64,000 nucleotides of DNA from Candidatus Omnitrophota bacterium (GCA_043821285.1 JBDRCZ010000051.1:2199-66198); one strand, 5' to 3'; positions 4,036 through 51,665 are shown, counted from the first letter of the stretch. Notes: a model not told the origin generated them from the sequence alone. Numbers and translations are program-made.

Positions 4036-4081
4036 AAAATCGCACCAGGGGTCTCCACTGCGTATACCGGGGGGGAGATTT

Positions 4082-28954: not shown

Positions 28955-30227
28955 AGGTATTGGTCTACATACCGGTAAAAAAGTAAAAGTTAAATTTAGA
29001 CCAGCTCCTGTTGGTGAGGGGATAGTGTTTATTCGCGTTGACCTTACTAATAAACCACAAGTTCCTGCCAGTATATCACATGTAATTGATGAAACCAAAC
29101 GTTCCCGCCGTACCTCCGTAGGAATAAATTCAGTAGAGGTTCATACGATTGAGCATTTAATGGCCGCGTTATGCGGATCATGGATTGATAATATTTATAT
29201 AGAAATCAGCGGGGAAGAATTACCCGGTTATGATGGGAGTGCCTGGGCGTTTTATCAGGCAATAAAAGAAGCCGGGATTAAGGAGCAATCCGCGTCAAAG
29301 AAAATATTTAAAATAAAAGAGCCGATTTGGATGGAGGAAGATGATGCATCGATTATAATTTTACCCGGGAAGGAATTTCAGGTTTCGTATACTTTGAACT
29401 ATGAGCATCAATTTTTAAGATCACAATACGCCAATATTATATTTAATAACGATGTTTTTGAACGGGAGATTGCTTCAAGCCGGACATTTTGCATGGAAAA
29501 TGAAATAGAGAGATTACGTGCTCAGGGGTTAGGCAAAGGGGCAGATTATAACAATACGATTGTGGTAACAAAAGATGGTATTTTGGGTAAACTAAGATTT
29601 CCCGATGAATTTGTTCGGCATAAAATTTCCGACTTAATGGGTGATCTATATCTTTTAGGCTGTATGATTGAAGGGCATGTAATTGCCATAAAAAGCGGAC
29701 ATTCTCTTAATATAAAATTATTACATAAAATAAAGGCACAACTTGACAGATATGACCGGCAGGCCGTCAATCGAAGGGGTAGTTTGACGGCAGCCACTTC
29801 TTCTTTGGATATTACCTCAATACAGAAGATTCTGCCGCACCGCTATCCATTTTTATTAGTAGACCGGATATTAGAACTGGAAGACAGATACGCCGCAGGC
29901 ATTAAAAATGTGACGATTAATGAACAATTTTTTAATGGGCATTTTCCCGCGTATCCGGTGATGCCTGGTGTTTTAATCATTGAAGCAATGGCTCAGGTCG
30001 CGGGAGTTTTAATGCTCAGCCGTCAGGAAAATTTAGGCAAACTCGCTTATTTTATGAGCATGGATAAAGTAAAATTCAGAAAAAGAGTTGTGCCGGGAGA
30101 CCAGTTATTGATCAAAGTAACTGTGGGCAAAGTGCGCTCCCGTGTATTACAGGTTGAGGCAAAGGCATTTGTTGACGGCAGGGTGGTTACCGAAGCAGAT
30201 TTAATGTTTTCTTTAGGTCAGGCATAG
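28911..30227 (+). CDS. lpxC-fabZ: Bifunctional UDP-3-O-acyl-GlcNAc deacetylase / 3-hydroxyacyl-ACP dehydratase (LpxC-FabZ fusion)
   Basis: LpxC N-terminus ([40 protein letters not shown]) and a C-terminal FabZ hot-dog domain ([35 protein letters not shown]). ATG 28911 is preferred. It overlaps the lpxD end by 44 nt. Confidence 0.85.
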
Positions 30228-32905: not shown

Positions 32906-34510
32906 ATGCTGGGATTAGGAAATTGTCCGACACTTTATATTGGCTTGGAGTCTTTGCAGTTAATTCAAGTGCAGGGAGCAGGGGCTAATATTAAGATAGC
33001 TAATTTAGCGCATGTTGACATCTTCTCCGATAATGCTCGTCCTTCAGAAGAAGCGATACGTAATGAATTGATCGTTTCTGCCATTCAAAAAGCTATCCGT
33101 AAATGTAAATTGAACATAAAAGAAGTCTATACCGTTCTACCGCATGGAGCAGTACTCGCGCGTTTTTTTGCAATGCCCAAGCTGCCTAAAGAGGAATGGG
33201 ATAGTGCTATTCGTTTTGAATCTAAAAAATATATACCATTTAGGTTAGAAGAAATAATTGCTGATTATGTTGTAGTTCATGATCCAAAGCAAAAGAAGAT
33301 AAAAGTAGTTTATGTGGCGGCAAAGATTGAAACGATAAAACGCCACATTGCCTTACTGGCCAAGGCGGGACTTCGTCCGAGAAAAATCGACATTATTCCC
33401 TTTGCCTTGATTAGAGCGTTTAAGCAGATGGGAGTTATCGATAATAAGGATAGTTATGCCATTATTGACATTAATCCGGGGATGGCCACAGTTGTGATTA
33501 TCTCTGAAGACATTCCCTACTTTATACGGGATATTTCGTTATCACAGGCAGAAGAATGGATTGATGATGCAGCGGCGCAGACAATATTTGAACAGGGAGT
33601 GGCATCCGTAGATGAGCGGGTTAAAATGCAGGAGAGTCTGGTGAGTGAATTGCGCCTTTCTTTTGATTATTATCAAAAGGAGTTGAATAATAAACCGATT
33701 ACGAAAATCGTGCTCTGCGGCGAGACAAACATATTTGATAAAATTGATGATTTGCTGTTTGAGCGGCTGAACACTCCGGTGGTTATACCAGATGTGGTTA
33801 AATATCTCGAAGGGACAAAGATAAAATTGCAGCCACGGTTTAATTCGATTATGCCAATCAGTTTTGGGGCCGCGTTAAACAAAATCGTTAGATCAAAGAT
33901 TACGGTGGACATGTTCAAGGTAAAAGAAGTTGTTCAGGTTAAAAAGAAGGTCTTCATGCGTAAACTGATATTTACAGAAATAATGACCGCGCTTATTTGC
34001 CTTTCACTTTTATTTCTGGTGATGAATGCAACCATTATCAAAGAACGAAGTATTTTCAGTAACATTGAGGCCCAGCGTCCAAACCTGGCGATTATAGAGA
34101 CGGATCTCAGCAAAAAACAATTAGAGGATACCAAAGAAGAATTAGGGGGACGGTTGAGGCTGTATCGTAAAATTGTCAAGGAAAGGCAGACTTGGACGAA
34201 GAAGTTAAACAGCCTGACGAAAATGCTGCCAGATTCTGTCTGGCTTACATCTATTGCCGGGCAGGATATCATTACCAAAAGCGGTATATCGAATAAAGAT
34301 CTTGTGCTTTCCGGAGTTGTTTATACAAGGAAAATGGGTGAGGAAACGAATATCATCAATAAACTAATCGCCGACTTTAAGCAGGATGAGGATTTTTATG
34401 AAGGATTTTCGATGCTTAATTTGACTTCAACAGAAAGTATGCGGGTGTTGGAATACGACGTTATGAAGTTTGAGATCTTGTGTTCAGCACAATTGGAGAA
34501 GACAGAGTAA
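32906..34510 (+). CDS. pilMN: Type IV pilus assembly PilM-PilN fusion
   Basis: N-terminal actin-like ATPase-fold PilM (~350 aa). A C-terminal TM helix (MRKLIFTEIMTALICLSLLFLV) plus coiled-coil/periplasmic region matches PilN. Confidence 0.65.
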   Translation: MLGLGNCPTLYIGLESLQLIQVQGAGANIKIANLAHVDIFSDNARPSEEAIRNELIVSAIQKAIRKCKLNIKEVYTVLPHGAVLARFFAMPKLPKEEWDSAIRFESKKYIPFRLEEIIADYVVVHDPKQKKIKVVYVAAKIETIKRHIALLAKAGLRPRKIDIIPFALIRAFKQMGVIDNKDSYAIIDINPGMATVVIISEDIPYFIRDISLSQAEEWIDDAAAQTIFEQGVASVDERVKMQESLVSELRLSFDYYQKELNNKPITKIVLCGETNIFDKIDDLLFERLNTPVVIPDVVKYLEGTKIKLQPRFNSIMPISFGAALNKIVRSKITVDMFKVKEVVQVKKKVFMRKLIFTEIMTALICLSLLFLVMNATIIKERSIFSNIEAQRPNLAIIETDLSKKQLEDTKEELGGRLRLYRKIVKERQTWTKKLNSLTKMLPDSVWLTSIAGQDIITKSGISNKDLVLSGVVYTRKMGEETNIINKLIADFKQDEDFYEGFSMLNLTSTESMRVLEYDVMKFEILCSAQLEKTE

Positions 34511-34512
34511 CT

Positions 34513-35064
34513 ATGCCAAAACAACAGCTGTCTCAGGAATTTGATCAAATCAGTATTATTAGTATAATTATCGTAATTATCGGAATTCTTTTTGGCGGGT
34601 ATATTATCTATACCAACCGTATTGCAGAAATACAAAATCTACGTAATGCGCAAGAGAAGGAGAGATTACGTAATCATGTAGGTAAATTACAGGAGGCATA
34701 TGACCGCTGTCAGCAAAATTTACCCGAGGTGAAAGAGACGGCCTGGCTTTTAGGCAGAGTGGCAAAAATCGCCAACGAAAACAGAATAAAACTTGAGGCA
34801 ATTAAACCAAAACCCATGCTGCGTGAAAAAGATTATCTTAAATTCTCAATCGAGCTGGATATAAAATGTACTTATCACGAATTGGGCAGTTTTATCAGCC
34901 GTTTAGAAAGTCATAAGAAATTTATCCGCGTAGATAAGTTAGCGGTTAACGTGATTAAAGAAAAACCATCGGAAGCAGATGAAAAAAAAGACACATCTCC
35001 GCTGGCTGATGTTTTGCTTGAAGTTAGCACTTTTGTTTTTAACCGGTTGAAGGTAACGTTATGA
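34513..35064 (+). CDS. PilO-like pilus assembly protein
   Basis: Single N-terminal TM helix, coiled coil, and the expected position after pilN. Confidence 0.5.
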   Translation: MPKQQLSQEFDQISIISIIIVIIGILFGGYIIYTNRIAEIQNLRNAQEKERLRNHVGKLQEAYDRCQQNLPEVKETAWLLGRVAKIANENRIKLEAIKPKPMLREKDYLKFSIELDIKCTYHELGSFISRLESHKKFIRVDKLAVNVIKEKPSEADEKKDTSPLADVLLEVSTFVFNRLKVTL

Positions 35065-35555
35065 CAAAATCAGATATTTTCATAACCACACCCGTACGCG
35101 TATCCTTGGCAGCTTCCATCTGCCAAAACGGATTAGTGGAAAATATAAAACTTATCCAAAACTGGCGATGGCAGAAGTTCATAGTTTTTATGATGATAAG
35201 TATTCTTGCAATAAATGCCTGGGCAGAAGTGGATAAAATCGGGGATGAGACTGAGGAAATTGATGAGATTCCCACGATCGAATATATTGGCCGAAGCCGT
35301 CGCGATCCACTGAAAAGTCCAATAAAAATAAAAGACCTTGACAATCCCCAGCCGTCGCCGGAAACAATTGTCCTGCCGAAATTGCAGCTTCAGGGACTGC
35401 TGAGTGGTGCGCAGACGCCGGCCGCAATAATAAATAATCAGATTATCAGGGTTGGCAATTTAATAATGGAAGCAGAAATTATAGAAATTACGAATAATGG
35501 AGTAAAATTATTATATAAAGGTAAGGAATTTTTTATCGAAAAAGAACATTTGTAA
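35061..35555 (+). CDS. PilP-like small periplasmic protein
   Basis: Single TM helix, about 160 aa, positioned just before the secretin. Confidence 0.4.
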   Translation: MTKSDIFITTPVRVSLAASICQNGLVENIKLIQNWRWQKFIVFMMISILAINAWAEVDKIGDETEEIDEIPTIEYIGRSRRDPLKSPIKIKDLDNPQPSPETIVLPKLQLQGLLSGAQTPAAIINNQIIRVGNLIMEAEIIEITNNGVKLLYKGKEFFIEKEHL

Positions 35556-35577
35556 AATTAACAAGAGGAGAGAGAAA

Positions 35578-37167
35578 ATGCAAAAGTATAAATGGATTAT
35601 AGCTTATATACTCATTATCTTATTTATGAACAGTTTGAGTTTTAGCCAGACGGTTACTCCTTTGAAAGATGACCTGGATGAAGATGTTTCCCTGCCAGCG
35701 GTATCTGCTAATAAAATTTCCCTGGACTTTAAAGATGCAAATATTATTGATGTGTTGAGATTGCTTTCTCAGGAAGCAGGTATTAGTTTTGTTCCGACTA
35801 AGGATGTCGAAGATAAGGAAGTAACATTGATTATGGAAAACGTTACGGTTGAAGAAGCAATTGCCGCGCTGATGAGTGCCAATGACCTGATTTTTGAAAA
35901 GACAAAGGGTAACATAAATATTATTAGAAAAAGCGGTGCCCCGGAAATAAAAACTGAAACTAAGATATATACCTTGAATTATGTCCGGATTGGAGAGGCA
36001 GCCAGTGGGAGTAAAGACAAGCGGGTCGGGGATGAGAAAGGTGGAATATTTGAAATAATGAAGAAAATACTGACGTCTTACGGTTCAGTGGTGGCAGATG
36101 CCAGAACGAACAGTATAATTATTACGGATATATCTACGCGTTTCGAACTAATTGAAGAAGTCCTGGCGCGTTTGGATACGCCAACACCACAGGTGGTAAT
36201 CGAGGTGGAGGTGATTGAGACAACGGCCGGATTAGTTGATGACTTAGGTTTTAAATGGGGTGGGGTGACCGGAACGATATTATCGGCAACTCCAGCAATA
36301 AGGCCATCACCATTTCCTTTTAAAAAGGTTGGGGTCCCGACTAGTTATGGAGTGGAATATAAGGAAAACACCTTTACTTTTGGCACATTGTCCGCATCAG
36401 CATTTGAGACGACTTTAAATATGATTAGACAGGATACCTCTACAAGATTTCTTGCACGGCCAAAAATTATGGTATTGAATAATGAATCTGCAGAGATTAA
36501 GATTGTTGCGGATCAGGCTATTGGCCGGGAGATAACCACGGATCCTGATTCTAATCTTGTAACCATTACATATGAACGGGCAGAGATTGGCACAACTTTA
36601 AAAGTTACGCCGCTGGTAAATAATATAAATATGATTACGTTAAAGATCGAACCGGAAGTGAGCAGGGCAGTTGATTCACCAGTTTTTTCTGAGGTTATTG
36701 ATAAACATTCCCGTAAGGCAGATACCGTGGTTATGTTAAAAGACGGAGAGACGGTTGTCTTGGGAGGATTTATTACGACTGAAGATAGCGGAGCAGAGCG
36801 GAATTTACCAGGACTCTCCAGCCTGCCATTTATCGGCGCATTGTTTAAACATAATAGAAAATCCAGAACAGACAAAGAACTGCTTGTATTTTTAACTCCC
36901 CATGTTGTAAAACAGTTAGAAACTGTAGTCCTGCCGGTTGAGCAGAGGGAAGAAATAGCCGAACAGCCGCAGCGAGAGGAGGTTACAAAAAAGACATCTA
37001 AAGAAATAAAAGTGATAAAAGAATCAGAGCGGATAGAAGGACAAAGCGCCTCAAAGCCAAAGGCTCTTCAGCCGAGTGCTAAACCAATAGCATTACAACC
37101 GCAGGAAAAATTTTCCTCGAAAAAAGATACCCCAAAAGTTGAAAATACTTTTATAAGAGAACAATGA
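35578..37167 (+). CDS. pilQ: Secretin PilQ/GspD family
   Basis: Signal peptide and C-terminal secretin domain (VVLGGFITTEDSGAERNLPGLSSLPFIGALFKH...LLVFLTPHVV). Extra charged C-terminal tail. Confidence 0.85.
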   Translation: MQKYKWIIAYILIILFMNSLSFSQTVTPLKDDLDEDVSLPAVSANKISLDFKDANIIDVLRLLSQEAGISFVPTKDVEDKEVTLIMENVTVEEAIAALMSANDLIFEKTKGNINIIRKSGAPEIKTETKIYTLNYVRIGEAASGSKDKRVGDEKGGIFEIMKKILTSYGSVVADARTNSIIITDISTRFELIEEVLARLDTPTPQVVIEVEVIETTAGLVDDLGFKWGGVTGTILSATPAIRPSPFPFKKVGVPTSYGVEYKENTFTFGTLSASAFETTLNMIRQDTSTRFLARPKIMVLNNESAEIKIVADQAIGREITTDPDSNLVTITYERAEIGTTLKVTPLVNNINMITLKIEPEVSRAVDSPVFSEVIDKHSRKADTVVMLKDGETVVLGGFITTEDSGAERNLPGLSSLPFIGALFKHNRKSRTDKELLVFLTPHVVKQLETVVLPVEQREEIAEQPQREEVTKKTSKEIKVIKESERIEGQSASKPKALQPSAKPIALQPQEKFSSKKDTPKVENTFIREQ

Positions 37168-38867
37168 TAAAATCAAACCTAAAATTAGGTGAAATATTAA
37201 TAAAACAGAGATTAATTACCAAGGAACAGCTTCAAGCGGCATTAGAGGTTCAAAAGAGAGAAAAATGCCGCTTAGGCGAAGCATTGGTAAAGACCGGGGT
37301 TGTCAGTGAAGAAAACATAGCTATGGCGCTGTCTAAGCAGTTAGGAATTATTTATGCTTCTTTAGAAAAGGGGCTGCTGCGGCCGAGTTTATTTCAGGAT
37401 TTAGATAAAATAATTCCCGAAGAATTTGCCCGGCTAAATAAGGTCATGCCGCTTTCCCATCATCTTAACTCTTTAACCATTGCCTGTGTAGATCCGTTGG
37501 ATTTAATCCTTATTGATAATATTACAAAGATGACTGGTTGTGATATTCATGTTGCGGTCAGTACGCCAGGCGAGATAACCGAGGCAATTGACCGTTTTTA
37601 CGGCAAGCAGGATTTATTAAAAAAGGCAATCGACGGCACATATTCGATTGAGGATGACACGGAAAGAAGTGAGACCGAGAAGAGAGATTTAGATAATTTA
37701 ATTGCCCAGGCAGAAGAAGCGCCGGTAATAAAACTTGTGGATTTAATTCTTCGACAGGCAATTGATGACCGGGCCAGTGATGTTCATGTAGAAAAGTTTG
37801 AAACGCGAGTGAGCATCCGCTACCGAATAGACGGCATATTATATGAAATTGCTCCCCCGGCACATCAATTATACCTGCCGATTGTTTCCCGGATTAAAAT
37901 AATTTCAAAAATGGATATTGCTGAACGCCGGCTGCCGCAAGACGGCGGGTTGAGTATTAAAGCCGGCAGCCGGCACCTGGATCTACGGGCATCGAGTATC
38001 CCTACGGTTTATGGCGAAAAGATCGTGCTTCGAATTTTGGATAAATCATCTTTGCCTACGAGTTTAGACATTTTAGGATTTTTACCGCATGAGCTTGAAA
38101 TCTTAAGGCAGGAAGTTGTCAAGCCCCATGGTATGGTTTTAACTACCGGTCCGACAGGTAGTGGAAAAACAACAACGTTATATGCGATTTTAAATACCAT
38201 AAAAACTCCGAAAAAGAATATTTTGACAGTTGAAGATCCGGTGGAATACAAGTTAGATGGGGTAAATCAGGTGTTGGTAAGACCGGAAATCGGTTTGAAA
38301 TTTTCAAGTGTTCTACGTGCATTTTTACGCCAGGATCCGGATATTATATTAGTTGGTGAAGTCAGAGATTTGGAGACGGTACAAATATGTTTGCGTGCCG
38401 CTTTAACCGGACATCTGGTGCTTAGCACACTACATACTAATGATGCGGCGGGAGCAGTTGTACGTTTGATGGATATGGGGGTTGAGCCGTTTTTGATCGG
38501 TTCCTGTATAAATCTAATCATGGCACAGCGTCTGGTGCGGAGAATTTGTCCTAAATGTAGAGTCGAATGTAAGGCACCGTTTGATGTTCCGCATTACGGC
38601 AAAATAACTCAGCCGATATTCGAGGCCAGGGGATGCAATGAGTGCCGTTTTATCGGATATAAGGGAAGAGTGGGGATTTATGAGTTATTGAGGTTAACAC
38701 CACGGATACGGAGTTTGATTCACCGCCGGGCAACAACAGATGAAATAAGAAAAGCCGCAATTGATGAAGGAATGACAACATTGTTCCAGGCGGGGATGGA
38801 AAAGGTTATCAGCGGATTGACCACGCTGGAAGAGATAATGTCAGTTACCACGATAGAGGAGGATTAA
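37164..38867 (+). CDS. pilB: Type IV pilus / T2SS assembly ATPase PilB/GspE
   Basis: N-terminal MshEN-like domain, Walker A GPTGSGKTT, and tetracysteine motif CPKC...CNEC. Confidence 0.9.
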   Translation: MIKSNLKLGEILIKQRLITKEQLQAALEVQKREKCRLGEALVKTGVVSEENIAMALSKQLGIIYASLEKGLLRPSLFQDLDKIIPEEFARLNKVMPLSHHLNSLTIACVDPLDLILIDNITKMTGCDIHVAVSTPGEITEAIDRFYGKQDLLKKAIDGTYSIEDDTERSETEKRDLDNLIAQAEEAPVIKLVDLILRQAIDDRASDVHVEKFETRVSIRYRIDGILYEIAPPAHQLYLPIVSRIKIISKMDIAERRLPQDGGLSIKAGSRHLDLRASSIPTVYGEKIVLRILDKSSLPTSLDILGFLPHELEILRQEVVKPHGMVLTTGPTGSGKTTTLYAILNTIKTPKKNILTVEDPVEYKLDGVNQVLVRPEIGLKFSSVLRAFLRQDPDIILVGEVRDLETVQICLRAALTGHLVLSTLHTNDAAGAVVRLMDMGVEPFLIGSCINLIMAQRLVRRICPKCRVECKAPFDVPHYGKITQPIFEARGCNECRFIGYKGRVGIYELLRLTPRIRSLIHRRATTDEIRKAAIDEGMTTLFQAGMEKVISGLTTLEEIMSVTTIEED

Positions 38868-38873
38868 TCTTTA

Positions 38874-40127
38874 ATGCCCGATTTTTTATATCGTGCACGG
38901 GATAGCAGTGGAAACATTGTACAAGGGACACTTAGTGCGCAAAGCCGCGATGATTTAGTTGATATCTTACAGCGCCGTAATTTATTAGTTACCTATATTG
39001 AAGCGCTTACCTCGCCGAAATCAACCGTACAGAAAAAAGAATATATTCGCCAGCGATCAAAAAGCAAATTTCGGATTTCTCTATTTCAACGGGTCAAATT
39101 GGATGATTTGACCCTGTTTGCCCGTCAGCTCTCAACCCTGCTTAATGCGGGTGTGCCCCTGCTGCGCAGTTTGACCATTTTAACAAAACAGGTAGAAAGT
39201 CTGCCCCTGCAGGAGGCAATTTCCGGGGTAAGAAAAGATATCCAGTCTGGTTTTACGCTGCGGGATTCCTTGGCGAAATATCCGCAGATTTTTACTAAGT
39301 TTTGGGTTAATTTAGTAGGTACGGGGGAGGCGAGCGGACAACTGCCTTTGGTGCTTGGGCAGATTGCAGTCTATTTTGAGAATGAAGGCGCTTTACGCCG
39401 TAAAATTATCTCGGCATTGATATATCCGGCAATTCTGATGACTGTGGCGGTGGTTGCAATATTTATCTTTATTATGAAAATTGTTCCTATTTTTGCAGCA
39501 ATGTTTGAGTCTTTTGATGTGGAATTACCTCAAGCAACAAAATTTCTGATAGTTTTGAGCAAGCTATTAGGGGGGTATAATTCTCTTTGGGTTATTGCGT
39601 CTTTAATCATAGGTTTTTTTATTTTAAAAAAGGTTATTTCGACCAAGCACGGCCGGTTTATTTTTGATAGCATTAGATTAAAACTTCCGATTTTTGGGAA
39701 TTTTTTCAGAAATATTGCCATTGCGACTTTTACGCGCGGGTTAGGGACAATGATCTCCAGCGGGGTACCGATATTATATGCCTTAGAGATTGTTACCAGC
39801 ACCGTAGGCAATAGCGTCATCGAGCGTTCGCTGGATGTAGTTAAGGAGAGTGTCCGCGAGGGCAAAACTGTAGCAGAACCATTAGAAGCAAATACGATAT
39901 TTCCGCCGCTGGTAGTACAGATGGTGAATGTTGGCGAAGAGACCGGAAATCTTGCGGATATGTTGATTAAGATTGCGGAGTTTTATGAAGAACGGGTAAC
40001 GGTAGTAACCGAACGGATGGCTTCACTGATTGAACCGATAATGCTGGTATTTATGGGGATCATTATTGGCGCGATGGTTGTTTCGATGTTTTTACCAATA
40101 TTTAAATTAGCTACGTCGGTAAGATAA
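38874..40127 (+). CDS. pilC: Type IV pilus platform protein PilC/GspF
   Basis: Two GspF repeats and three TM segments. Confidence 0.85.
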   Translation: MPDFLYRARDSSGNIVQGTLSAQSRDDLVDILQRRNLLVTYIEALTSPKSTVQKKEYIRQRSKSKFRISLFQRVKLDDLTLFARQLSTLLNAGVPLLRSLTILTKQVESLPLQEAISGVRKDIQSGFTLRDSLAKYPQIFTKFWVNLVGTGEASGQLPLVLGQIAVYFENEGALRRKIISALIYPAILMTVAVVAIFIFIMKIVPIFAAMFESFDVELPQATKFLIVLSKLLGGYNSLWVIASLIIGFFILKKVISTKHGRFIFDSIRLKLPIFGNFFRNIAIATFTRGLGTMISSGVPILYALEIVTSTVGNSVIERSLDVVKESVREGKTVAEPLEANTIFPPLVVQMVNVGEETGNLADMLIKIAEFYEERVTVVTERMASLIEPIMLVFMGIIIGAMVVSMFLPIFKLATSVR

Positions 40128-40130
40128 GAA

Positions 40131-40165
40131 ACAAATCTCTCCCTCCGCTTGCGGAGGGGGAGATT
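40131..40165 (+). terminator. Rho-independent terminator, member of a conserved repeat family
   Basis: aaatctctccctccgcttgcggagggggagattt. Paralogs at 27672, 32714, 42095 (opposite orientation) and 45585 share the cgcttgcg-type loop region. Confidence 0.65.
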
Positions 40166-40320
40166 TATACACGGAAAATGCAGCACATTTTCCGGAGGTT
40201 ATGCCTTTTTCACAAAGGGGAAAGAATAAGATTGCACCATAACTGTTTTGTTCTTAAGCCGTTCTGTGTCCGCGGTGGTTAAGTATTTGACAAAATGCTG
40301 GATTAATACAGGGGGATGAT

Positions 40321-40710
40321 ATGAGAAAGACAGCATTTACCTTAATTGAGGTAATGATTACAATCATAATCGTCGCGATTTTAGCGACACTTGCTGTGCC
40401 AACATATATGAAGATGGCAGAGCGGGCAAAAAGACGTGAGGCAATTGCTACTTTAAACACAATATTTGCCGCGGAGAGGGTCTATTGTACAGAGAGAAGG
40501 ACGTATATTGATGCTGCTGCTGCCGCTGAGTGGGCGGCATTAAATATGGATGATCCTAATGCCAACCCGCAAAGTAATTTTGGCTATACAATTAGTGGTG
40601 CAACAACAACTACTTTTAACGCTACGGCGACGAGAAACTCCGGTACTTATTCGGGTAATACAGTAACTATTGACCAAACAGGTAACCTCGGAGGGACATT
40701 TAACCCCTAA
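40321..40710 (+). CDS. pilA: Type IV pilin (prepilin with class III signal)
   Basis: MRKTAFTLIEVMITIIIVAILATLAVP, i.e. the G-F-T-L-I-E prepilin cleavage/methylation motif. Confidence 0.85.
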   Translation: MRKTAFTLIEVMITIIIVAILATLAVPTYMKMAERAKRREAIATLNTIFAAERVYCTERRTYIDAAAAAEWAALNMDDPNANPQSNFGYTISGATTTTFNATATRNSGTYSGNTVTIDQTGNLGGTFNP

Positions 40711-43780: not shown

Positions 43781-44158
43781 GTGATGAAGTTAGGTACAAA
43801 AAAAGGTTTTACGTTAGTAGAGTTAATGATTGTTGTAATCATCATTGGTATTTTGGTATCGGTGGCATTACCACAATACGCTAGATCAGTCAATCGCGCA
43901 AAGGCAACCGAAGCAACAAGAATACTAGGTCAAATAAAAGAAGCTGAGCAGGTTGTGCTTGATGCAACTGGAGCGTATACCGCTGCATGGGTTACGCTAG
44001 GAATGGATGACCCATCTAATGCAAAGTGGACATACACCATACCAGCGGCAGCTGCGGCTGCTTTTCAAGCTCAAGCTAGTGATGGAACTGATACAGTTAC
44101 GATAGATGAAACTGGGACGCTAGTGGGTACAGGTAAATATACCGGTCTTTTGCAATAA
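43781..44158 (+). CDS. Type IV pilin paralog
   Basis: GFTLVELMIVVIIIGILVSVALPQY prepilin motif. The C-terminal region is paralogous to pilA at 40321 (MDDP..N...YTI...T.TID.TG.L.GT). The likely true start is ATG 43784. Confidence 0.85.
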   Translation: MMKLGTKKGFTLVELMIVVIIIGILVSVALPQYARSVNRAKATEATRILGQIKEAEQVVLDATGAYTAAWVTLGMDDPSNAKWTYTIPAAAAAAFQAQASDGTDTVTIDETGTLVGTGKYTGLLQ

Positions 44159-44491
44159 GTAAACATGGCATGACTAAGATATTGAAGGAAGATAATACTT
44201 GGACATTGTAAGTGTAAAATGTTTGTCTAAAAAGACCCACGGAATTTCATTCCGTGGGTCTTTTTATTATAAAAGTTCTTTTATGGTATAGGAAAGTATA
44301 CCCTTACACCCTTACGGGCACAAGCAAAATATTTTCCTAACCTAGGGAAAATCGCTAAAAACAGCTAAAAACGATTTTCTTGTTGCAATTTTTAGGATTA
44401 TAGGGTATACTTTTATTAGTAATAATAATTCCTGCCGGGTAGAAAGAAAGATTAAATAAGTAAACAGAACAACCTAAAAAAGGAAGGTGAT

Positions 44492-45583
44492 ATGCGAGTA
44501 ATTGCTGTTGCTAATCAGAAAGGTGGATGTGGTAAAACAACAGTTGCCATAAACCTTGCCGCAGCTCTTGCCAAAAGAAAAAAACAGGTTCTCTTAATTG
44601 ATTTAGATCCGCAGGCACACGCGACATTAGGACTTAATGTGAAATCCGAGGGATTAGAAGACTCGATGTATAATGTATTGACCGTAGATGAGGCAAAAAA
44701 GAAACGTTTGGATGAGATTGTTGTTTCTTTTAATGAAAATCTTGATTTAGCCCCGGCGACAATTATGCTTAGTGCAATTGAACAGGAATTAAATGCCCGA
44801 GAGGAGCGGCATGCCCGGCTTTCCCAGGCAGTATCTTTGATGGTTAATGCTAAAAATTATGATTATATGATCATTGATTGTCCGCCAAACCTTGGGATGA
44901 TCACCTTTAATGCCTTACATTGCGCGGATGAGGTAATTGTGCCGATTGATATTGGGTTTTTCTCTTTACACGGTGTTGCCAGGCTTATGGAGACAATTAC
45001 CATGCTGCGCGAGACAACCCGGCATAAATTAGCGGTAAGGATTTTGATTAATATGTATGAGCGGCGGACGCGTTTTACCCAGGAAGTAGTTGAAGAGATC
45101 CGCACGCATTTTAAAGAAGCGGTGTTTAATACCCAGATTGTTGCTTCCGTGAGATTGAAGGAAGCAACAGGGTTTGGCCTGCCGGTAATCGAATATGCCA
45201 AAGGGACATCTGTGGCAGAGTCTTTTTTAAATCTTGCCCATGAAGTAATTACCGATGGCGTGGACCAGTCCAGACCGGATTTAGCGGCAAAAGATAAATT
45301 GGCCGGTCCGCGATTTATTGATCAAGGAGTAATGTTTACTTATTATGCGCCAAATGCGCGTTCGATAGAAATTGTCGGTGATTTTAATAACTGGATTGCG
45401 GATAAACAGAGTAAGTTAGAACTAATTTCCGACGGCCTTTGGGCAAGAACATTACCGTTGAACCGGGGCAAATACTTTTACAAATTTCTCGTCGACGGTA
45501 TTTGGAAAAATGATCCGGGAAATTTACATATTGAAAATGATTCATTCGGCGGAGTAAATTCTGTAGTCGAGATACATAAATAA
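44492..45583 (+). CDS. ParA/Soj-type ATPase fused to a C-terminal CBM48 / AMPK-beta-like glycogen-binding domain
   Basis: Deviant Walker A KGGCGKTT and the ParA fold through about residue 260. The C-terminal ~85 aa (IEIVGDFNNW...GKYFYKFLVDGIWKNDPGNL...GGVNSVVEI) aligns by eye to the AMPK beta glycogen-binding domain / CBM48. Confidence 0.8.
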   Translation: MRVIAVANQKGGCGKTTVAINLAAALAKRKKQVLLIDLDPQAHATLGLNVKSEGLEDSMYNVLTVDEAKKKRLDEIVVSFNENLDLAPATIMLSAIEQELNAREERHARLSQAVSLMVNAKNYDYMIIDCPPNLGMITFNALHCADEVIVPIDIGFFSLHGVARLMETITMLRETTRHKLAVRILINMYERRTRFTQEVVEEIRTHFKEAVFNTQIVASVRLKEATGFGLPVIEYAKGTSVAESFLNLAHEVITDGVDQSRPDLAAKDKLAGPRFIDQGVMFTYYAPNARSIEIVGDFNNWIADKQSKLELISDGLWARTLPLNRGKYFYKFLVDGIWKNDPGNLHIENDSFGGVNSVVEIHK

Positions 45584-45879
45584 AATTCTCCGCAGCAAAC
45601 TGCGGAGAATTTTATAATCGGAAAATGCTGTGCATTTTCCGGAAATTTGAATAACGCAGGAAAAGCACCATTGGATTTAGCAATTATGTGTTTTGAATAC
45701 TACAACGAAACATTGTATCAAAGAAAGGAAACGATAGATAAATAAATCAACCAAAGGGAAAGTTTGAACACGAAAGGTTTTCAAATGACAAGCTGAACGA
45801 GCGAATAACATCTAAGTATTAATAAATTACTCGTCCGGTACCCCAGATCTGGTTGATTATAGTTCGTTTAGCTTATACA

Positions 45880-46770
45880 ATGGATAAAAAATTAGGAAAA
45901 GGACTAGACCAGCTCTCTCAGGTATTTATTGACACGCAGTCATCTGTGCTTGATTTAAGGCAGGCCGCTCAAGAAAACAGACATAAGGTATCAACCACGC
46001 GGGTAATCTGTATTTTAGGTACCGAAGGGTATATTACCCGTAATGCTTTTCTTACCTGTAACCTTTCCGCAGCACTTTCACGTTTAGGTATGAAAATTGC
46101 TATTTTGGATACAAACAGTTCGCTATCCTGCAGAAATTTTTTTTTCGGAGAAGGCAATATCCCTGGCACCAACTCTGGAGACAAGGAAAAAATTATAAAG
46201 GAAGGTCCTTTAGGGATAAAATTAATACCTTTTACCCTGGATATGACTGGGGCAGGCACTGGTGAATATGCAGAGATATTAAAAGATTTGAAGAATAATC
46301 ATTATGATTTAACACTTATATCTGCTTCAATATCAGATATTAACATTCAGGCGCTGGCTAAGAATATCCAAACCTTTATTTTAATTGCTCCGGCGGCAAC
46401 TCCGGAGATGATTAAGACCTACCAAATAATCAAGGCGATTTATTACCATAATCCGCGTGGAGAAATTGGGCTGGTTGTTGACGGGGCAGAGGAGGAATTT
46501 AAGGCGGATTCTATTTTTGCCAAAATTGCCGAAGTGACCAGCAAATATTTAAATAAAGAGGTGTTAAAGTTTGGCAATCTTTGTTATAAAATGAAGGATT
46601 TGCATTGTGAAAAAAACAGACAAACGAGCCACATTTCGATTTATGACGCAAGACTGCAGGCTTCAATTTCAAATATTGCCCAGATAATTGTCTTGCGGAT
46701 GAATGTTAATAATGGTTCGGCTGAGATGATTTTTTCTTTTGAAGATCTGAGCAAAATTCTTGAAAAATAA
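45880..46770 (+). CDS. MinD/FlhG/ParA-like protein with a degenerate Walker A (likely ATPase-dead partner)
   Basis: The overall MinD-like succession of motifs is kept (...AILDTNSS..., ...GIKLIPFT..., ...TFILIAPAATPEMIKTYQIIKAI...). The P-loop is ILGTEGYITRN, with no GK[ST]. Confidence 0.5.
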   Translation: MDKKLGKGLDQLSQVFIDTQSSVLDLRQAAQENRHKVSTTRVICILGTEGYITRNAFLTCNLSAALSRLGMKIAILDTNSSLSCRNFFFGEGNIPGTNSGDKEKIIKEGPLGIKLIPFTLDMTGAGTGEYAEILKDLKNNHYDLTLISASISDINIQALAKNIQTFILIAPAATPEMIKTYQIIKAIYYHNPRGEIGLVVDGAEEEFKADSIFAKIAEVTSKYLNKEVLKFGNLCYKMKDLHCEKNRQTSHISIYDARLQASISNIAQIIVLRMNVNNGSAEMIFSFEDLSKILEK

Positions 46771-46782
46771 GGGAGTGGTTAT

Positions 46783-47364
46783 ATGTCGTTAATATTTAAT
46801 GAGAAAAAAATAAAACAGTCGGAATTGAAAAATATTTTAACCGCTAATATCAGAAATCTCCAGAATAATCTCCGAATTGTTGATTTGGAATGTGACATGG
46901 TGGAAAAAGATACGGTGTTATTTGCGGCGGATGCCCGGGGTCTGGTGGTGATTGCATATTCTACCGCACCAAACAGTATAAAACTTATCCACGGTTTTGC
47001 GGCTGTTGGCTGGCTTAAGAAAAATTTTAAACTCGTCAAAGGTTATTTAAAAGGGCAGGATATTGCCTGCGGTGATCATACCAGATTATGGTATATTTCG
47101 TCCCGGCATAGCGATGAACTAAAGCAGGCAATAGGGTTTATGAATATCCCGGTTACCCTGATAAGTTACAAATATATATATTCTGAAGGGGTAAGCGGCA
47201 TACTCTTTGAACGTTTTGAACTTAATCAGCTTAATGATGTTAAGCCGGAAACAATCGAGGAAGAGCCATCGCTGATAATATCTGCACAAGATCAGGATAG
47301 AGTTAATTTAACATCAGAAGAAGAAGCAGAATTTATAAATTTTGGCAAACTGATAAATCCCTAA
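46783..47364 (+). CDS. Hypothetical protein, third gene of the ParA-like module
   Basis: No recognisable motif. Tightly spaced after the MinD-like gene. Confidence 0.4.
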   Translation: MSLIFNEKKIKQSELKNILTANIRNLQNNLRIVDLECDMVEKDTVLFAADARGLVVIAYSTAPNSIKLIHGFAAVGWLKKNFKLVKGYLKGQDIACGDHTRLWYISSRHSDELKQAIGFMNIPVTLISYKYIYSEGVSGILFERFELNQLNDVKPETIEEEPSLIISAQDQDRVNLTSEEEAEFINFGKLINP

Positions 47365-47400: not shown

Positions 47401-47437
47401 TTAAACTTGATTATTCCCTGCAGCTTGCTGCGGGGAA
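47401..47437 (+). terminator. Repeat-family terminator-like element (TTAAACTTGATTATTCCC plus hairpin)
   Basis: ttaaacttgattattccctgcagcttgctgcgggg. Confidence 0.55.
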
Positions 47438-47522: not shown

Positions 47523-50500
47523 TCAGTCACCGCTTATCTCTATAATATACGCTGCCCGTGGATGGTTTTTGTTACGCTGGAGGATTTTTTTTGCGTATGC
47601 TCTGGCTTTTGCCTTGTTCCCGCAATTTAACTGAGTAACAGCAATATCGGCAAGAAATTTCTCATAGTTAATTCCTTGAGCCTTTGCCGCATTTTTGGTC
47701 GTAATTAATTTCTCCGCCTGATTAAAGAAATTTAAGGCATTTTTATCGTCATTTATGCTCAAATAAATTTTTCCTAAAAAATAATAAAACCTTGCCTTTT
47801 TATCCAAAGATAAATCAACGCACGTTTTTATATTTTCTACGGTTTCCGTGAACACTTCCGGTAAAAGAAAAGACTGCAGGGTATGATACCTATTCATCGC
47901 TAAAGCGGCATATTGCTCTATGTGTTCAATTTTTTTGTCAGTAAAAATTAATTTTTTTAATATCCGGATAGATGTCTCCAATCCTTCAATGTTATATGAA
48001 CAAAAAGCCAGCGCAGCTTGTTCGTCTTCGGGGTATTTTGTATGCCATTTTTTAACCAAAGAGATAAGGAAATGATTATTATATGCGGGATTTTCATGGA
48101 GATAGGTATAGAGATTTTTCAGATTGTTATAATTGATTTGCGCGGATCCAAGGTAATTTTTAATTAAAAGCACGCTGTTTTCTAAAGGCAATTTTCGCTC
48201 ATCGAACATTTTAATGAATTTCTCGGATACGGATATTTTTGTATACAGGCCCAAAGGCGCTTGATAATCCAAGGATGGGAAGTAATCGCTATTTACCGCG
48301 GCAGCATTTTTGGGAATTAATTTAGCGATACTTTTACTGGAGGACAATTGCAGGCTGAGCAAGGTAAATATGTCATTTACCTTTATTCTAAATAAGTCAT
48401 GGGTTATATTTTCCTCGGCAAGTCTTTTTTCCATTTCAATAAAATCAGGGGTAAATTCTTCCCGTGAGCCGATGATAAAGATATCATAAATCCCGGTCGT
48501 CCACAAAGAGACGTGCGGGAAGACGGAGAAAAATGTTTGCAGGATCAGAGCAAATGTTTCATTATTCATCTCATAAGTCTGGACCCACTGGAGCATTATT
48601 CCGCGTTTATTGAGATGATTGTAACATTCCTGATAAAACTCTTGTGAAAACAACGCCCCGATTCCGCTAATCCACGGATTAGAAGGTTCGCTGATTATTA
48701 CATCGTATTTCTTATCAGTTCGTAATAAAAAGGTTTTTGCATCTTCCAGATGGAGATTGAGACGCGCGTCTCTCAAGGCATTATAATTATAAGAGGAAAA
48801 ACATTTGTTTGCTTCAACGACGGTGCGGGAGATTTCAATAAGGTCAAGGTTTTTAATCGGATGAAGTAGCGCCGAACCACAAGTAACCCCGCTGCCTAAC
48901 CCTACGACCAGGACGTCTTTTGCCGCGGGTTTTAATAATAAAGGAAGGTGTGCGCTAAGTATTTGTGTGGGCATATCAGCACCGGTAGATGCATCCGGTT
49001 TTCCATTTATAAATAATATACGTTCCTCACGGGAGGCGCTTACAACATGCATAACCGCGACGCTGGCATTTAACCCATCCTGATAAAAGAGGATATTGTT
49101 TTCTTTTATTTCCTGGGAAAAATCGTTAAAGGTTTCCTTAATATTACGGGGGTACCTAAAGGCTTGGGTGCTAAAATAGGCCATATTCCAGTCAGGCACA
49201 AGTATTTTATAACTGGTGAAAATACAAACTACTAAGAAGGAACAGATTAGTTTTTGCTTTAATTTAAAACTATTGTCTAAAAATAGCACAATCATACCCA
49301 GCAGCAGATTTATTATTATTCCAAGCTCTAACGTATATTTTAAGCCAATAAGCGGAATGATAAATAACCCGGTGGCAAAGGCGCCGGCAATATTGCCGCT
49401 GGTATTAGCCGCAAAGACACTGCCAATATTTTTTCCGAGGGTCTGCAGTTTAGACGATGCAATTTTACTCACCAAGGGCAGGGTCATGCCCATAAACATG
49501 GTCGGGATAAACATTACGGTAAATGAGAGTAAAAATTTAAGTCCGGCATACAACGGAAAGGTTTGTGGCGTTCTTACGAAAATTGCCGCGAGTTTCGAAA
49601 ATATAAACGGGAGTTTTTCATAAAAAGGCAGCGTACAAATCAGGGAAATCCCGATTAAAATTTCGCAGATACCAAATACGAAGAAGGTAAATTTTTCTTT
49701 CGGCATAAGACGAGAGATTAAAAATGAACCGAGCGTAATGCCCGAGATAAATGCCGCAAGCATCAGTGAAAATGAATAAGTAGAAGAGCCGAGGATAAGC
49801 GAAAGTAATCTTATCCAGACAATTTCATAAAGCATTGCCGCAAACCCGGAGACAAATATTCCGGTTTTGGCAATATTTACTGTTTTGTCAGTGAAAACAT
49901 ATTGGTACACGGACGATAGTTCTTGCGGCGGAGTTTTTTCAAAAGGGCGTGGTTTTTTAGAGATATTTCGATAGAGCAGGTTTAAAATAATCGCGGCACC
50001 GCCAACAAAAAAATTAATAAACACGGCGATAAATATAGAAAACTCAAGGCCGAAAGAATAAATCAGATAAAACCCGGCCCAAATTGTTCCGGCTACCGCA
50101 CCGAAACTATTTAGATAATATAGCCGGGCGACTATTTTCCCGCGCACCGAGAGTGCTTTAATCATAAATCTGCTCAAAATCGGCAGTGTCCCCCCCATCA
50201 GAATTGTCGGCGGCAGCATGATCAAGGCGCTAATAATAAATTTAGTAATAACAATTAACACCGGAAATTGAGATAAATTTTTAGCAGCCGCTAAATAGAT
50301 ATTTCGTGAAAAGACAAAAAGATTTGGCGTGAAGACACAAAATAAGGCAATGCCGATTTCTACCCAGGCAAAAAAGGAAAGCCGGTTTTTAACCCGGTCG
50401 GCAAACTTACCTAATAAAAAGCTGCCCAAGGTAAGCCCGGTCATAAACGTAGCCAGTACTAAAGTATGGGCATAGGCAGTATTGCCGAGTATTAATGTGA

Positions 50501-50591
50501 GATATTTAGCCCAGACAATCTCATAGATAAGGCCGGCCACCCCGGAAAGAAAAAAACAGAGATATAGTACGAAATTGTATTTTAATCGCAT
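47523..50591 (-). CDS. Fused MFS-type membrane domain / spermidine-synthase-like methyltransferase / C-terminal TPR protein
   Basis: About 500 aa of polytopic TM region. A PABS-like fold (VLVVGLGSGVT...DVIISEPSNPW...) follows. TPR-like helices run to the C-terminus. Confidence 0.75.
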   Translation of the reverse strand: MRLKYNFVLYLCFFLSGVAGLIYEIVWAKYLTLILGNTAYAHTLVLATFMTGLTLGSFLLGKFADRVKNRLSFFAWVEIGIALFCVFTPNLFVFSRNIYLAAAKNLSQFPVLIVITKFIISALIMLPPTILMGGTLPILSRFMIKALSVRGKIVARLYYLNSFGAVAGTIWAGFYLIYSFGLEFSIFIAVFINFFVGGAAIILNLLYRNISKKPRPFEKTPPQELSSVYQYVFTDKTVNIAKTGIFVSGFAAMLYEIVWIRLLSLILGSSTYSFSLMLAAFISGITLGSFLISRLMPKEKFTFFVFGICEILIGISLICTLPFYEKLPFIFSKLAAIFVRTPQTFPLYAGLKFLLSFTVMFIPTMFMGMTLPLVSKIASSKLQTLGKNIGSVFAANTSGNIAGAFATGLFIIPLIGLKYTLELGIIINLLLGMIVLFLDNSFKLKQKLICSFLVVCIFTSYKILVPDWNMAYFSTQAFRYPRNIKETFNDFSQEIKENNILFYQDGLNASVAVMHVVSASREERILFINGKPDASTGADMPTQILSAHLPLLLKPAAKDVLVVGLGSGVTCGSALLHPIKNLDLIEISRTVVEANKCFSSYNYNALRDARLNLHLEDAKTFLLRTDKKYDVIISEPSNPWISGIGALFSQEFYQECYNHLNKRGIMLQWVQTYEMNNETFALILQTFFSVFPHVSLWTTGIYDIFIIGSREEFTPDFIEMEKRLAEENITHDLFRIKVNDIFTLLSLQLSSSKSIAKLIPKNAAAVNSDYFPSLDYQAPLGLYTKISVSEKFIKMFDERKLPLENSVLLIKNYLGSAQINYNNLKNLYTYLHENPAYNNHFLISLVKKWHTKYPEDEQAALAFCSYNIEGLETSIRILKKLIFTDKKIEHIEQYAALAMNRYHTLQSFLLPEVFTETVENIKTCVDLSLDKKARFYYFLGKIYLSINDDKNALNFFNQAEKLITTKNAAKAQGINYEKFLADIAVTQLNCGNKAKARAYAKKILQRNKNHPRAAYIIEISGD

Positions 50592-50921: not shown

Positions 50922-51665
50922 ATGGTAAAAATAGATAGGATTTTTATCAGCCGCGGTAAAGAGGTAGTGATTGGCATAAGTAGCGGGAGAAGAAATTTTG
51001 ATCTACGTGCGGGAAATTTCAAACAAGAAATAATCGCCGCCCGGCAGGAGTTTTTTCATCAACTGGGAATGGAGATTAATGATAGTGTTTTTTTAGAACA
51101 GGTTCATGGGGCGCGGGTTTTTCAGGTTTCAAAAAAACACCGCGGCCGCGGGAGCTTTAATTATCAGCACAGTATAAAAGGATCGGATGCCGCGGTTACT
51201 GATGAAGCGAATCTGGGACTGTGTATTTTAACCGCTGATTGCTTAAATATATTTTTTTATCAAAGAAGGTCTCAGGCTATTGGCATCTCTCATGCCGGCT
51301 GGCGTAGTACACAAAAACAGATCGCCGTAAAAACCGCCGAGAAATTAATAAATGTTTATAAAGGGGCAATCGTTGACCTTGAGGTATATATTGGCCCGGG
51401 GATTAGAAGATGCTGTTATGAGGTAAGCCGTAGTTTTAAGAAAATTTTTCCCGAGTCAACTGTTAGCCGGAGGGGGAAAGTTTATTTAGATTTAGCAGGA
51501 GAAAACATCTTACAGCTTAAACGTATCGGGGTATTAGCAAAGAATATCAAAGTCATCAGCCAATGTACGAGTTGTTTACACAGAAAATATTTTTCATACC
51601 GCCAGGGAGATATAAAAGAACGAATGATTGGGGTGATTGTTAAGAGAGACAAAAACAAAAAATGA
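50922..51665 (+). CDS. pgeF: Peptidoglycan editing factor PgeF / YfiH (laccase-domain, DUF152)
   Basis: LEQVHGARV, TADCLNIFFY, HAGWRST and C.YEV motifs conserved in the YfiH family. Confidence 0.75.
   Translation: MVKIDRIFISRGKEVVIGISSGRRNFDLRAGNFKQEIIAARQEFFHQLGMEINDSVFLEQVHGARVFQVSKKHRGRGSFNYQHSIKGSDAAVTDEANLGLCILTADCLNIFFYQRRSQAIGISHAGWRSTQKQIAVKTAEKLINVYKGAIVDLEVYIGPGIRRCCYEVSRSFKKIFPESTVSRRGKVYLDLAGENILQLKRIGVLAKNIKVISQCTSCLHRKYFSYRQGDIKERMIGVIVKRDKNKK

Follow-up and report, generated by a model that had tools for sequence, protein, structure and literature searches.

The 64,000-nucleotide stretch of DNA analysed here, taken from a metagenome-assembled genome of Candidatus Omnitrophota (the window; positions are counted from its first letter), carries a three-gene module consisting of a ParA-type ATPase fused to a C-terminal CBM48 carbohydrate-binding module (CBM) (gene 1), a FlhG/MinD-fold pseudo-ATPase (gene 2) and a small NucS-C-like adaptor (gene 3; Table 1). 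We tentatively read the three genes as a ParA-type system that positions or tethers cytoplasmic α-glucan (glycogen) particles, and give this reading slightly less than an even chance. What is new here is a ParB-type peptide at the N-terminus of gene 2, together with its modular distribution among partner proteins; the ParA-CBM48 system is itself uncharacterised. The initial annotation, which was made from the sequence alone, was not aware of a characterised system of this kind, and no paper describing one was found in the literature searched, including searches for ParA with glycogen and for DUF4912.

Translation yields three open reading frames (ORFs) where that annotation had placed them, at 44492-45583 (363 amino acids, aa), 45853-46770 (305 aa in its longest form) and 46783-47364 (193 aa), and the motifs it had quoted (KGGCGKTT, IEIVGDFNNW, YFYKFLVDGIWKNDP and GGVNSVVEI from gene 1, ILGTEGY from gene 2) are all present in the translations. 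Gene 1 is annotated merely as an ‘AAA family ATPase’. Pfam AAA_31 matches its residues 1-181 with E = 1.5e-54 (185 bits against a cut-off of 27) and CbiA matches with 84 bits (cut-off 25.4), alongside matches to BcsQ, ParA and MipZ; in NCBIfam, ParA_partition, RepA and MinD are matched below threshold, and the C-terminus matches GlgB. The best Protein Data Bank (PDB) match for residues 1-269 is the Myxococcus xanthus ParA structure 8RAY (8ray_B; E = 1.5e-51, 39% identity), followed by Soj, and ParA and Soj structures are matched at E ≤ 1e-40.

By its catalytic residues, gene 1 encodes an intact Soj-like ParA. In 86 non-redundant fusions, on which all conservation counts in this work are based (neighbourhood counts refer to 86 distinct loci), K10, K15 and T16 of the deviant Walker A motif are kept in 85 and C13 in 84, which gives the family signature KGGCGKT. 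D37 and D39 of Motif 2 (A′), equivalent to M. xanthus D58 and D60, and D129 of Walker B are present in all 86. With these motifs essentially invariant, the ParA part is active-looking, as had been proposed, and its degeneracy is refuted. R192, at what we take to be the position of the DNA-binding Arg189 (R189) of Soj, is kept in 83 of the 86 fusions. An Arg or Lys at position 221, found in 74 of them, aligns with M. xanthus ParA R238, a residue mutated to abolish DNA binding (PMC12462528). Judged by alignment, gene 1 retains basic residues equivalent to the non-specific DNA binders of Soj and M. xanthus ParA, and a large part of the hydrophobic pocket into which the ParB peptide fits. The pocket residues L150, L152, L155 and L187 of M. 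xanthus ParA map onto L134, M136, F139 and M171 of gene 1, the positions of L134, M136 and F139 are hydrophobic across the fusions, and the equivalent of M. xanthus Y81 (Y60) is kept in 82 of 86. ATP-dependent dimerisation, non-specific DNA binding and partner-stimulated ATPase activity of gene 1 are predicted from such sequence proxies only. The protein has no signal peptide in its sequence, so any glucan ligand must be cytoplasmic.

The C-terminal module of gene 1 is matched by AMPK1_CBM (PF16561) over residues 284-362 (E = 6.2e-12, 46.0 bits against a gathering score of 26.8) and by CBM_48 (PF02922) over residues 278-338 (33.2 bits, cut-off 22.4). A phmmer search of the PDB with residues 256-363 finds the CBMs of AMPK β1 and β2 (1z0m, E = 5.6e-7) and then the CBM48 domains of GlgB. 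According to the 1Z0M structure paper, AMPK-β1 reportedly contacts glycogen through W100, K126, W133, L146 and N150. In the HMMER alignment to rat AMPK-β1 (1z0m) these residues correspond, in the same order, to W301, K331, W338, F352 and N356 of gene 1, and their conservation in the fusions is close to complete: W301 in 86/86, K or R at 331 in 83/86, W338 in 85/86, N or D at 356 in 84/86, and an aromatic or hydrophobic residue at 352. On this alignment the putative sugar-contact set is retained family-wide. The initial annotation had recognised an AMPK-β-like glycogen-binding domain in this segment; the match is significant and the contact residues are conserved, so the segment is not a generic E-set or Ig fold devoid of such residues. 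The linker that joins the module to the ParA domain varies from 19 to 103 aa across the family.

The fusion is widespread. Gene 1 has more than 120 full-length homologues with 41-55% identity and the same set of Pfam matches, and a one-genome-per-species scan found at least 590 loci that encode a relative; the pattern N[QH]KGGCGK retrieves the family from genome contigs. In the best 80 of these at least 590 loci essentially the whole query is covered (residues 1 to about 360), CBM included, and the carriers belong to Omnitrophota, Planctomycetota, Myxococcota, Thermodesulfobacteriota, Zixibacteria, Rokubacteria, Gemmatimonadota, Acidobacteriota, Krumholzibacteriota and others. Nitrospirota also carry the fusion, and its spread covers more than ten phyla. 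One fusion locus (L061) lies on a 3-kb contig of a metagenome-assembled genome binned as ‘Methanobacteriota archaeon’; this is probably bin contamination and not an archaeal occurrence.

Gene 2 most likely starts at nt 45880 (M10 of the ORF that begins at 45853), because the NCBI annotation and the conserved N-terminal peptide of its orthologues both begin there. From this start the protein opens with M-DKKLGKGLDQLSQVF (peptide sequence MDKKLGKGLDQLSQVFID; in summary form KKLGKGLxxLSxxF). M. xanthus ParB binds ParA through a motif at residues 11-19, and the gene 2 peptide matches this motif at L11, L15, L18 and, with Lys for Arg, at R13. Stimulation of the ATPase depends on R13, a position that about half of ParBs fill with Lys (PMC12462528). 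The N-termini of gene 2 orthologues read K(K/R)LG(K/R)GL(E/S)D(I/V)S(H/Y)(L/F)F, with some degenerating to P[RK]xL, and the peptide is also found at the N-terminus of at least 37 library representatives related to gene 2. By analogy with ParB, this feature, which the initial annotation had not seen, would activate gene 1.

The peptide is not confined to gene 2. At 17 loci that have a separate gene 2, none of the gene 3 homologues carries an LGRGL peptide. Five loci, from Rokubacteria, Gemmatimonadota and Acidobacteriota, have no gene 2; there the fusion is directly followed by the gene 3 homologue, and four of these five homologues have PLGRGLEDVSHLF at their own N-terminus. Judged by this distribution, the peptide appears to behave as a portable cassette that addresses ParA-CBM48. 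At a locus from a near relative of the window (L009:10725-12608), a DUF4912 protein has a long, Lys-rich, repetitive N-terminus that contains ARKKLGKGLEDISTLFLS, the same peptide as in gene 2; it shows a weak Glucodextran_B match at its C-terminus and adjoins a GH57 branching enzyme. In two further near relatives (L001 and L003) the DUF4912 proteins are Lys-rich in their tails but do not contain the peptide.

The remainder of gene 2 resembles MinD and FlhG. Its sequence matches CbiA (E = 0.053, Pfam) and minD_arch (E = 8e-4, NCBIfam) below threshold, and an AlphaFold2 (AF2) model with a predicted template modelling score of 0.64 and a core predicted local distance difference test (pLDDT) value of about 75 retrieves FlhG (4rz2), FleN and MinD in Foldseek (E = 1.6e-8, probability 1.0). 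Started from gene 2 and run over the ORFs of the neighbourhoods, a local jackhmmer search converges, at about 1e-50, on the ParA fusions. Word-indexed homologue searches gave two relatives for gene 2 and none for gene 3; the other homologues came from the jackhmmer search and from an exhaustive library search. A profile search of 1.84 billion representatives gave 1215 clusters for gene 2 at E ≤ 0.001, in which the nearest active relatives are FlhG-type proteins with SGKGGVGKT and an N-terminal DQAxxLR. Where relatives have GKGGxGK[ST], gene 2 has GTEGYITR, and GK[ST] is absent from 25 of 28 neighbourhood orthologues and from 34 of 37 peptide-bearing representatives. The few relatives that retain GKGGTGKS pass the Pfam thresholds for ParA and AAA_31 and look like evolutionary intermediates. 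The peptide-bearing relatives P0137, P0146 and P0163 pass those for AAA_31, ParA and CbiA. On the strength of the model and the replaced P-loop we regard gene 2 as a predicted MinD/FlhG-fold pseudo-ATPase without a functional Walker A motif, not an active member of the family; the MinD/FlhG fold that the initial annotation gave to this dead ATPase is supported by both Foldseek and jackhmmer. An origin of gene 2 as a recent duplicate of gene 1 was rejected: BLASTP of the two proteins gives E = 0.14, and gene 2 is closer to FlhG. At its other end, gene 2 carries an amphipathic tail that ranks, together with the N-terminal peptide, among the segments of the protein with the largest hydrophobic moment. 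P0122, P0123, L001, L003 and L009 have comparable tails, and the sequences FFERLFKVVMK and FFKKMVSGF are found in relatives. By analogy with MinD and FlhG the tail is a possible membrane-targeting helix, an assignment we make with low confidence.

Gene 3 homologues are 150-270 aa long and are found after gene 2 at 17 loci and directly after the fusion at five. The family profile matches the NucS structure 2vld in the PDB (E = 5.7e-4), and NucS_C is matched by three of 18 family members. The catalytic D/E-x-K is not conserved (D-F-E or A-Y-S stands in its place, and the window protein has none), and no N-terminal NucS domain was found in gene 3, which thereby fails the two-domain NucS architecture. 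Sequence profiles thus suggest a catalytically dead NucS-C-like core with a PD-(D/E)xK fold. A C-terminal acidic-aromatic motif of gene 3, LTSEEEAEFINF in the window, is present in 15 of the 17 homologues with a separate gene 2 and in none of the five without it, so that its occurrence and that of the LGRGL peptide are complementary. The motif, which can also be written (S/T)xEE(I/L)xx(F)(F/L/M/Y), resembles the PIP-box or clamp-binding layout (h-x-x-aromatic-aromatic), a layout that occurs at the NucS C-terminus.

The order gene 1-gene 2-gene 3 recurs, like the fusion itself, in related genomes and in several phyla, a recurrence that the initial annotation had suggested checking. The constant presence of the dead paralogue beside the fusion did not hold: it is not obligatory, and there are clades in which the NucS-like protein stands by itself or a membrane protein is used. 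The fusion tree splits into clades by context, namely the gene 2/gene 3 clades, which include the window, and clades B and C. Clade B has the order outer-membrane-like protein, GH57, 190-aa transmembrane (TM) protein, fusion, 108-aa membrane protein and 131-aa Lys-rich protein, and in clade C a TM protein related to that of clade B sits upstream of the fusion. Across the paralogous fusion clades without genes 2 and 3, an upstream protein of 190-290 aa (L015, L018-L020, L022, L023, L028, L030, L031, L033, L034, L040, L043, L047, L049, L051, L060, L062, L065, L069, L074, L081, L082, L085, L087) combines a conserved N-terminal peptide, KK(D/E)IYEHLA(K/N)IYLDASS, with a Lys-rich stretch, a TM helix and a β-sandwich that gives a weak CBM30 match. 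In clade B it is preceded by the GH57 gene and followed by the 108-aa membrane protein and the 131-aa protein, the latter having a Lys-rich tail and a β-barrel; this protein and its companions may be an alternative, membrane-anchored partner set.

The genes around the fusion independently point to glycogen through their GH57 α-glucan members. In the nearest relatives of the window (L001, L003 and L009) the order is pilin, fusion, gene 2, gene 3, YfiH/Cu-oxidase_4, DUF4912 and GH57+BE_C. A GH57 branching enzyme and DUF4912 lie 3-5 kb downstream of the fusion at these three loci and in L010 (Thermodesulfobacteriota), and GH57 is directly upstream of the paralogous clade B fusions at 13 loci.

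Considering (i) the CBM match, (ii) the conservation of its contact residues and (iii) the vicinity of GH57 genes, the positioning of glycogen granules proposed by the initial annotation is supported, and the computational checks that it had suggested gave results in its favour. The function is still a prediction, and the fusion does not by itself define the cargo, since the ParB-type activating peptide is borne by the partners. We infer glycogen binding, ATPase stimulation and localisation from sequence, and propose the following cycle. ATP-bound dimers of gene 1 would coat the nucleoid, to which the two tethered CBMs of each dimer would fasten granules of glycogen or assemblies of glycogen and enzymes. 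Gene 2 would present its N-terminal peptide, which would dock at the edge of the gene 1 dimer and trigger ATP hydrolysis, freeing gene 1 from DNA. The C-terminal acidic-aromatic motif of gene 3 would recruit or localise gene 2, and at loci without gene 2, gene 3 itself would supply the activating peptide. Repeated rounds of attachment and release would in this way spread or partition the granules, as McdAB does for carboxysomes. In its fullest form the proposal is that of a widespread, unrecognised glycogen-granule partition system in which the nucleoid-bound ParA itself bears the cargo-binding module, a peptide relay runs from the NucS-like adaptor through the FlhG-like pseudo-ATPase with its ParB peptide to ParA-CBM48, and the activating peptide has been transferred, as a portable cassette, between three or more unrelated scaffolds. 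This extended form may be correct, but we hold it to be doubtful.

Table 1 Features of the ParA-CBM48 module and its immediate surroundings in the 64-kb window.
Feature	Position (nt)	Strand	Description
Gene 1, ParA-CBM48 fusion	44492..45583	+	363 aa
ParA ATPase domain, gene 1 residues 1-254	44492-45253	+	
Deviant Walker A KGGCGKTT, gene 1 residues 10-17	44519..44542	+	Signature Lys K10 and family-specific invariant Cys13
Variable linker, gene 1 residues 255-283	45254-45340	+	
CBM48/AMPK1_CBM module, gene 1 residues 284-363	45341..45580	+	Putative glucan contacts W301, K331, W338, F352, N356
Hairpin after gene 1	45580..45615	.	Perfect 16-bp hairpin and T-run directly past the stop; terminator-like
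Gene 2, FlhG/MinD-fold pseudo-ATPase (predicted)	45880..46770	+	296 aa
N-terminal peptide DKKLGKGLDQLSQVF of gene 2	45883..45927	+	ParB-type ParA-binding/activating motif L-G-(K/R)-G-L-x-x-(L/I/V)
Degenerate P-loop GTEGYITR, gene 2 residues 47-54	46018..46041	+	Relatives have GKGGxGK[ST] here
C-terminal amphipathic tail of gene 2, SFEDLSKILEK	46735..46767	+	Hydrophobic moment 0.64, AF2 helix 287-295
Gene 3, NucS-C-like adaptor (putative)	46783..47364	+	193 aa
C-terminal motif LTSEEEAEFINF of gene 3	47308..47343	+	Consensus (L/V)(S/T)xEE(I/R)xxF
Hairpin after gene 3	47413..47437	.	Shared with the convergent 1022-aa gene
Pilin gene (context, outside the module)	43781..44266	+	125 aa; N_methyl and pilin matches; own terminator hairpin 44228-44266
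Type IV pilus cluster	32906-40710		PilM-like (534 aa), PilO, 164-aa ORF (35061-35555), secretin, PilB-type ATPase with MshEN domain, PilC, pilin

Several observations weigh against a glycogen-positioning system. All that goes beyond the domain assignments is inference. A classical ratchet built on a cargo-binding ATPase also needs an activator on the cargo, and no glucan-binding domain is recognisable in either gene 2 or gene 3. Gene 2 may be membrane-associated through its amphipathic tail, and the TM partner in clades B and C suggests a membrane-linked function. Within the peptide pocket of gene 1, E99, the equivalent of M. xanthus E117, is kept in merely 41 of 86 fusions, and T176 replaces M. 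xanthus L192. The NucS-like assignment of gene 3 rests on a match at E = 5.7e-4, and its single-sequence AF2 model has a pLDDT of 33. GH57 lies within 7 kb of the fusion at 17 of 86 distinct loci, which fall into few synteny classes and are not independent events, and no GH57, DUF4912 or other glycogen gene is found in the window.

Some of these points fit a different role for the CBM, in which glycogen is a signal and not the cargo: the AMPK-like module would report glycogen status and modulate a ParA system that acts on another target, such as nucleoid organisation, division-site choice or, through a membrane-associated partner, an envelope machine. A CBM of the AMPK-β type rather than the enzyme type, an FlhG-like scaffold with a possible membrane-targeting helix in gene 2, the pairing of the fusion with a TM protein in clades B and C, and genes 2 and 3 devoid of a glucan-binding domain are all in line with such a sensor. 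Against it, no second cargo candidate is conserved across phyla among the fusion neighbourhoods, where, of the functional neighbours, only GH57 and DUF4912 recur, and the activating peptide is also carried by a glucan-related DUF4912 protein, so that we consider a purely signalling role unlikely. Another reading is that the C-terminal β-sandwich has been re-purposed as a protein-protein or non-glucan module and that the system is unrelated to glycogen. E-set and CBM48 folds also make protein contacts, the AMPK-β CBM packing on the kinase domain, and the window itself lacks glycogen genes; yet invariance across more than ten phyla is seen at exactly the positions that align with the Trp pair stacking on sugar and with the Lys and Asn contacts, and the GH57 neighbourhood speaks against a re-purposed module as well. 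We regard it as improbable.

The strong constraint on the glucan-contact residues would also be left unexplained if the system were a DNA partition-like one, with gene 3 as a DNA-binding (centromere or nucleoid) ParB analogue that delivers the peptide directly or through gene 2 and a CBM that merely anchors the ATPase. This idea draws on the ParA half, which is closest to chromosomal ParA/Soj, and on gene 3 of some phyla, which is built exactly like small centromere-binding proteins, with a ParA-activating peptide at the N-terminus, then a linker and the fold of a nucleic-acid enzyme. However, genes 2 and 3 give no ParB/Srx, helix-turn-helix (HTH) or ribbon-helix-helix match in Pfam or NCBIfam, no centromere-like repeats were found near the genes, and the loci are chromosomal with housekeeping neighbours and no plasmid or phage context, which makes DNA partition, in our estimate, quite improbable. 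Least credible is a role as an accessory to the type IV pilus, such as the positioning of its machinery. A pilin gene is directly upstream of the fusion in the window, L001, L003 and L009, a pilM-pilC cluster lies 4-11 kb upstream, and at L006 a PilSR-like two-component pair is encoded upstream and, 5 kb downstream, a pseudopilin. The pilin, however, has a strong terminator of its own, its adjacency is limited to the four loci just named, out of 86 and all from one Omnitrophota clade, and lpxB and an opposite-strand oxidoreductase separate the pilus cluster from the module; we judge a pilus role highly improbable.

The layout of transcription units in the window agrees with this. The pilin terminator is an 18-bp perfect hairpin with a T-run, and hairpins with T-runs follow the pilin gene, gene 1 and gene 3, so the pilin, gene 1 and genes 2-3 probably form separate units. 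With terminators flanking the pilin and gene 1, membership of the module in a pilus operon was rejected. The initial annotation had placed the module between a pilin gene and pilus-related repeats; the pilin link is weak, and no tandem or pilus-related repeats adjoin the module. The hairpins at 45586-45610 and 47413-47437 are 84% complementary (TTCTCCGCAGCAAACTGCGGAGAAT / ATTCCCTGCAGCTTGCTGCGGGGAA) and could be terminators of one type or copies of a small repeated element. On the minus strand at 44227-44398, sub-threshold Rfam matches (His_leader, 35.8 against 49 bits, and BTnc005) overlap the pilin terminator hairpin and a second hairpin at 44303-44324; these matches in the intergenic region between the pilin and gene 1 are most likely due to chance.

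The wider surroundings of the module comprise the type IV pilus cluster (32.9-40.7 kb), lpxB, the oxidoreductase, a second pilin, a 1022-aa protein, yfiH and recQ. The second pilin (43781-44158) lies 3 kb beyond the cluster, past lpxB and the Gfo/Idh/MocA oxidoreductase on the opposite strand. The 1022-aa protein (47523-50591, minus strand) spans the membrane several times and has a spermidine-synthase-like domain and, at its C-terminus, tetratricopeptide repeats; it sits between gene 3 and yfiH (50922-51665) and is absent from this place in L001, L003 and L009. Farther upstream, a 481-aa LpxC-FabZ fusion protein (28782-30227) belongs to an outer-membrane biogenesis region with BamA (24490-26781) and DnaB (23112-24488), and a 473-aa ORF at 3923-5344, which has no Pfam family at E ≤ 1e-5, overlaps the end of an FtsH-like gene (2413-4035). 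An anti-phage defence system was also considered and rejected: PADLOC gave only local P-loop matches and one weak match (E ≥ 1e-5, 17-23 bits).

Among known systems, the ParA half and the peptide are most like chromosomal ParABS (Soj/ParA with Spo0J/ParB). Gene 1 shares with it the deviant Walker A, Motif 2, Walker B and the basic residues predicted to bind DNA, and the partner peptide L-G-(R/K)-G-L-x-x-L is that of a ParB N-terminus. In contrast to ParABS, there is no ParB/Srx CTPase, HTH domain or parS here, so the module does not belong to that class; the peptide sits on an FlhG-like pseudo-ATPase, a NucS-like or a DUF4912 protein, and the ATPase bears a CBM48 and an invariant P-loop Cys (KGGCGKT). 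The ParA/MinD positioning systems McdA-McdB, PomXYZ and those of chemoreceptor arrays likewise use a ParA-family ATPase for non-DNA cargo, with a small partner that stimulates it, as we presume here. They differ in that their link to the cargo is made through the partner only, whereas here the cargo-binding domain is on the ATPase, and in their cargo: the literature searched describes no ParA system for glycogen. The CBM of AMPK β (CBM48, PF16561) is the best match of gene 1 residues 284-363, with the equivalents of its W100, K126, W133, L146 and N150 conserved; here it is fused to a bacterial P-loop ATPase and not to a kinase scaffold, and ligand binding is predicted.

The best structural and sequence relatives of gene 2 are FlhG proteins (FleN/YlxH), which act on FlhF. 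FlhG is MinD-like, activates its partner SIMIBI NTPase through an N-terminal DQAxxLR and ends in a C-terminal amphipathic helix, and gene 2 has the same layout; it differs in lacking Walker A, in carrying a ParB-type peptide and in its presumed target, which is ParA and not FlhF. The profile of gene 3 matches the first half of the RecB-like C-terminal nuclease domain of NucS/EndoMS (2vld), from which it departs in its catalytic residues and in the missing N-terminal domain, as described above. In concept, the proposed system is also similar to PhaM and PhaF, which tether polyhydroxybutyrate/polyhydroxyalkanoate granules to the nucleoid and so link a storage granule to DNA for even distribution. 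These are passive bifunctional binders with no ATPase cycle, and they have no homology to genes 1-3.

ParA/MinD ATPases are the general bacterial answer to the problem of placing large cytoplasmic objects. Glycogen is, to our knowledge, the most common bacterial carbon store, and we know of no positioning system for it; the fusion family described here is a concrete, testable candidate and gives direct access to the question of how bacteria organise glycogen. Its design is unusual in two respects, the fusion of a cargo-binding domain to the motor and the grafting of a ParB-type activating peptide onto a dead FlhG-like ATPase or other scaffolds. The fused cargo domain and the grafted peptide bear on how ParA systems gain cargos and on how their activators evolve.

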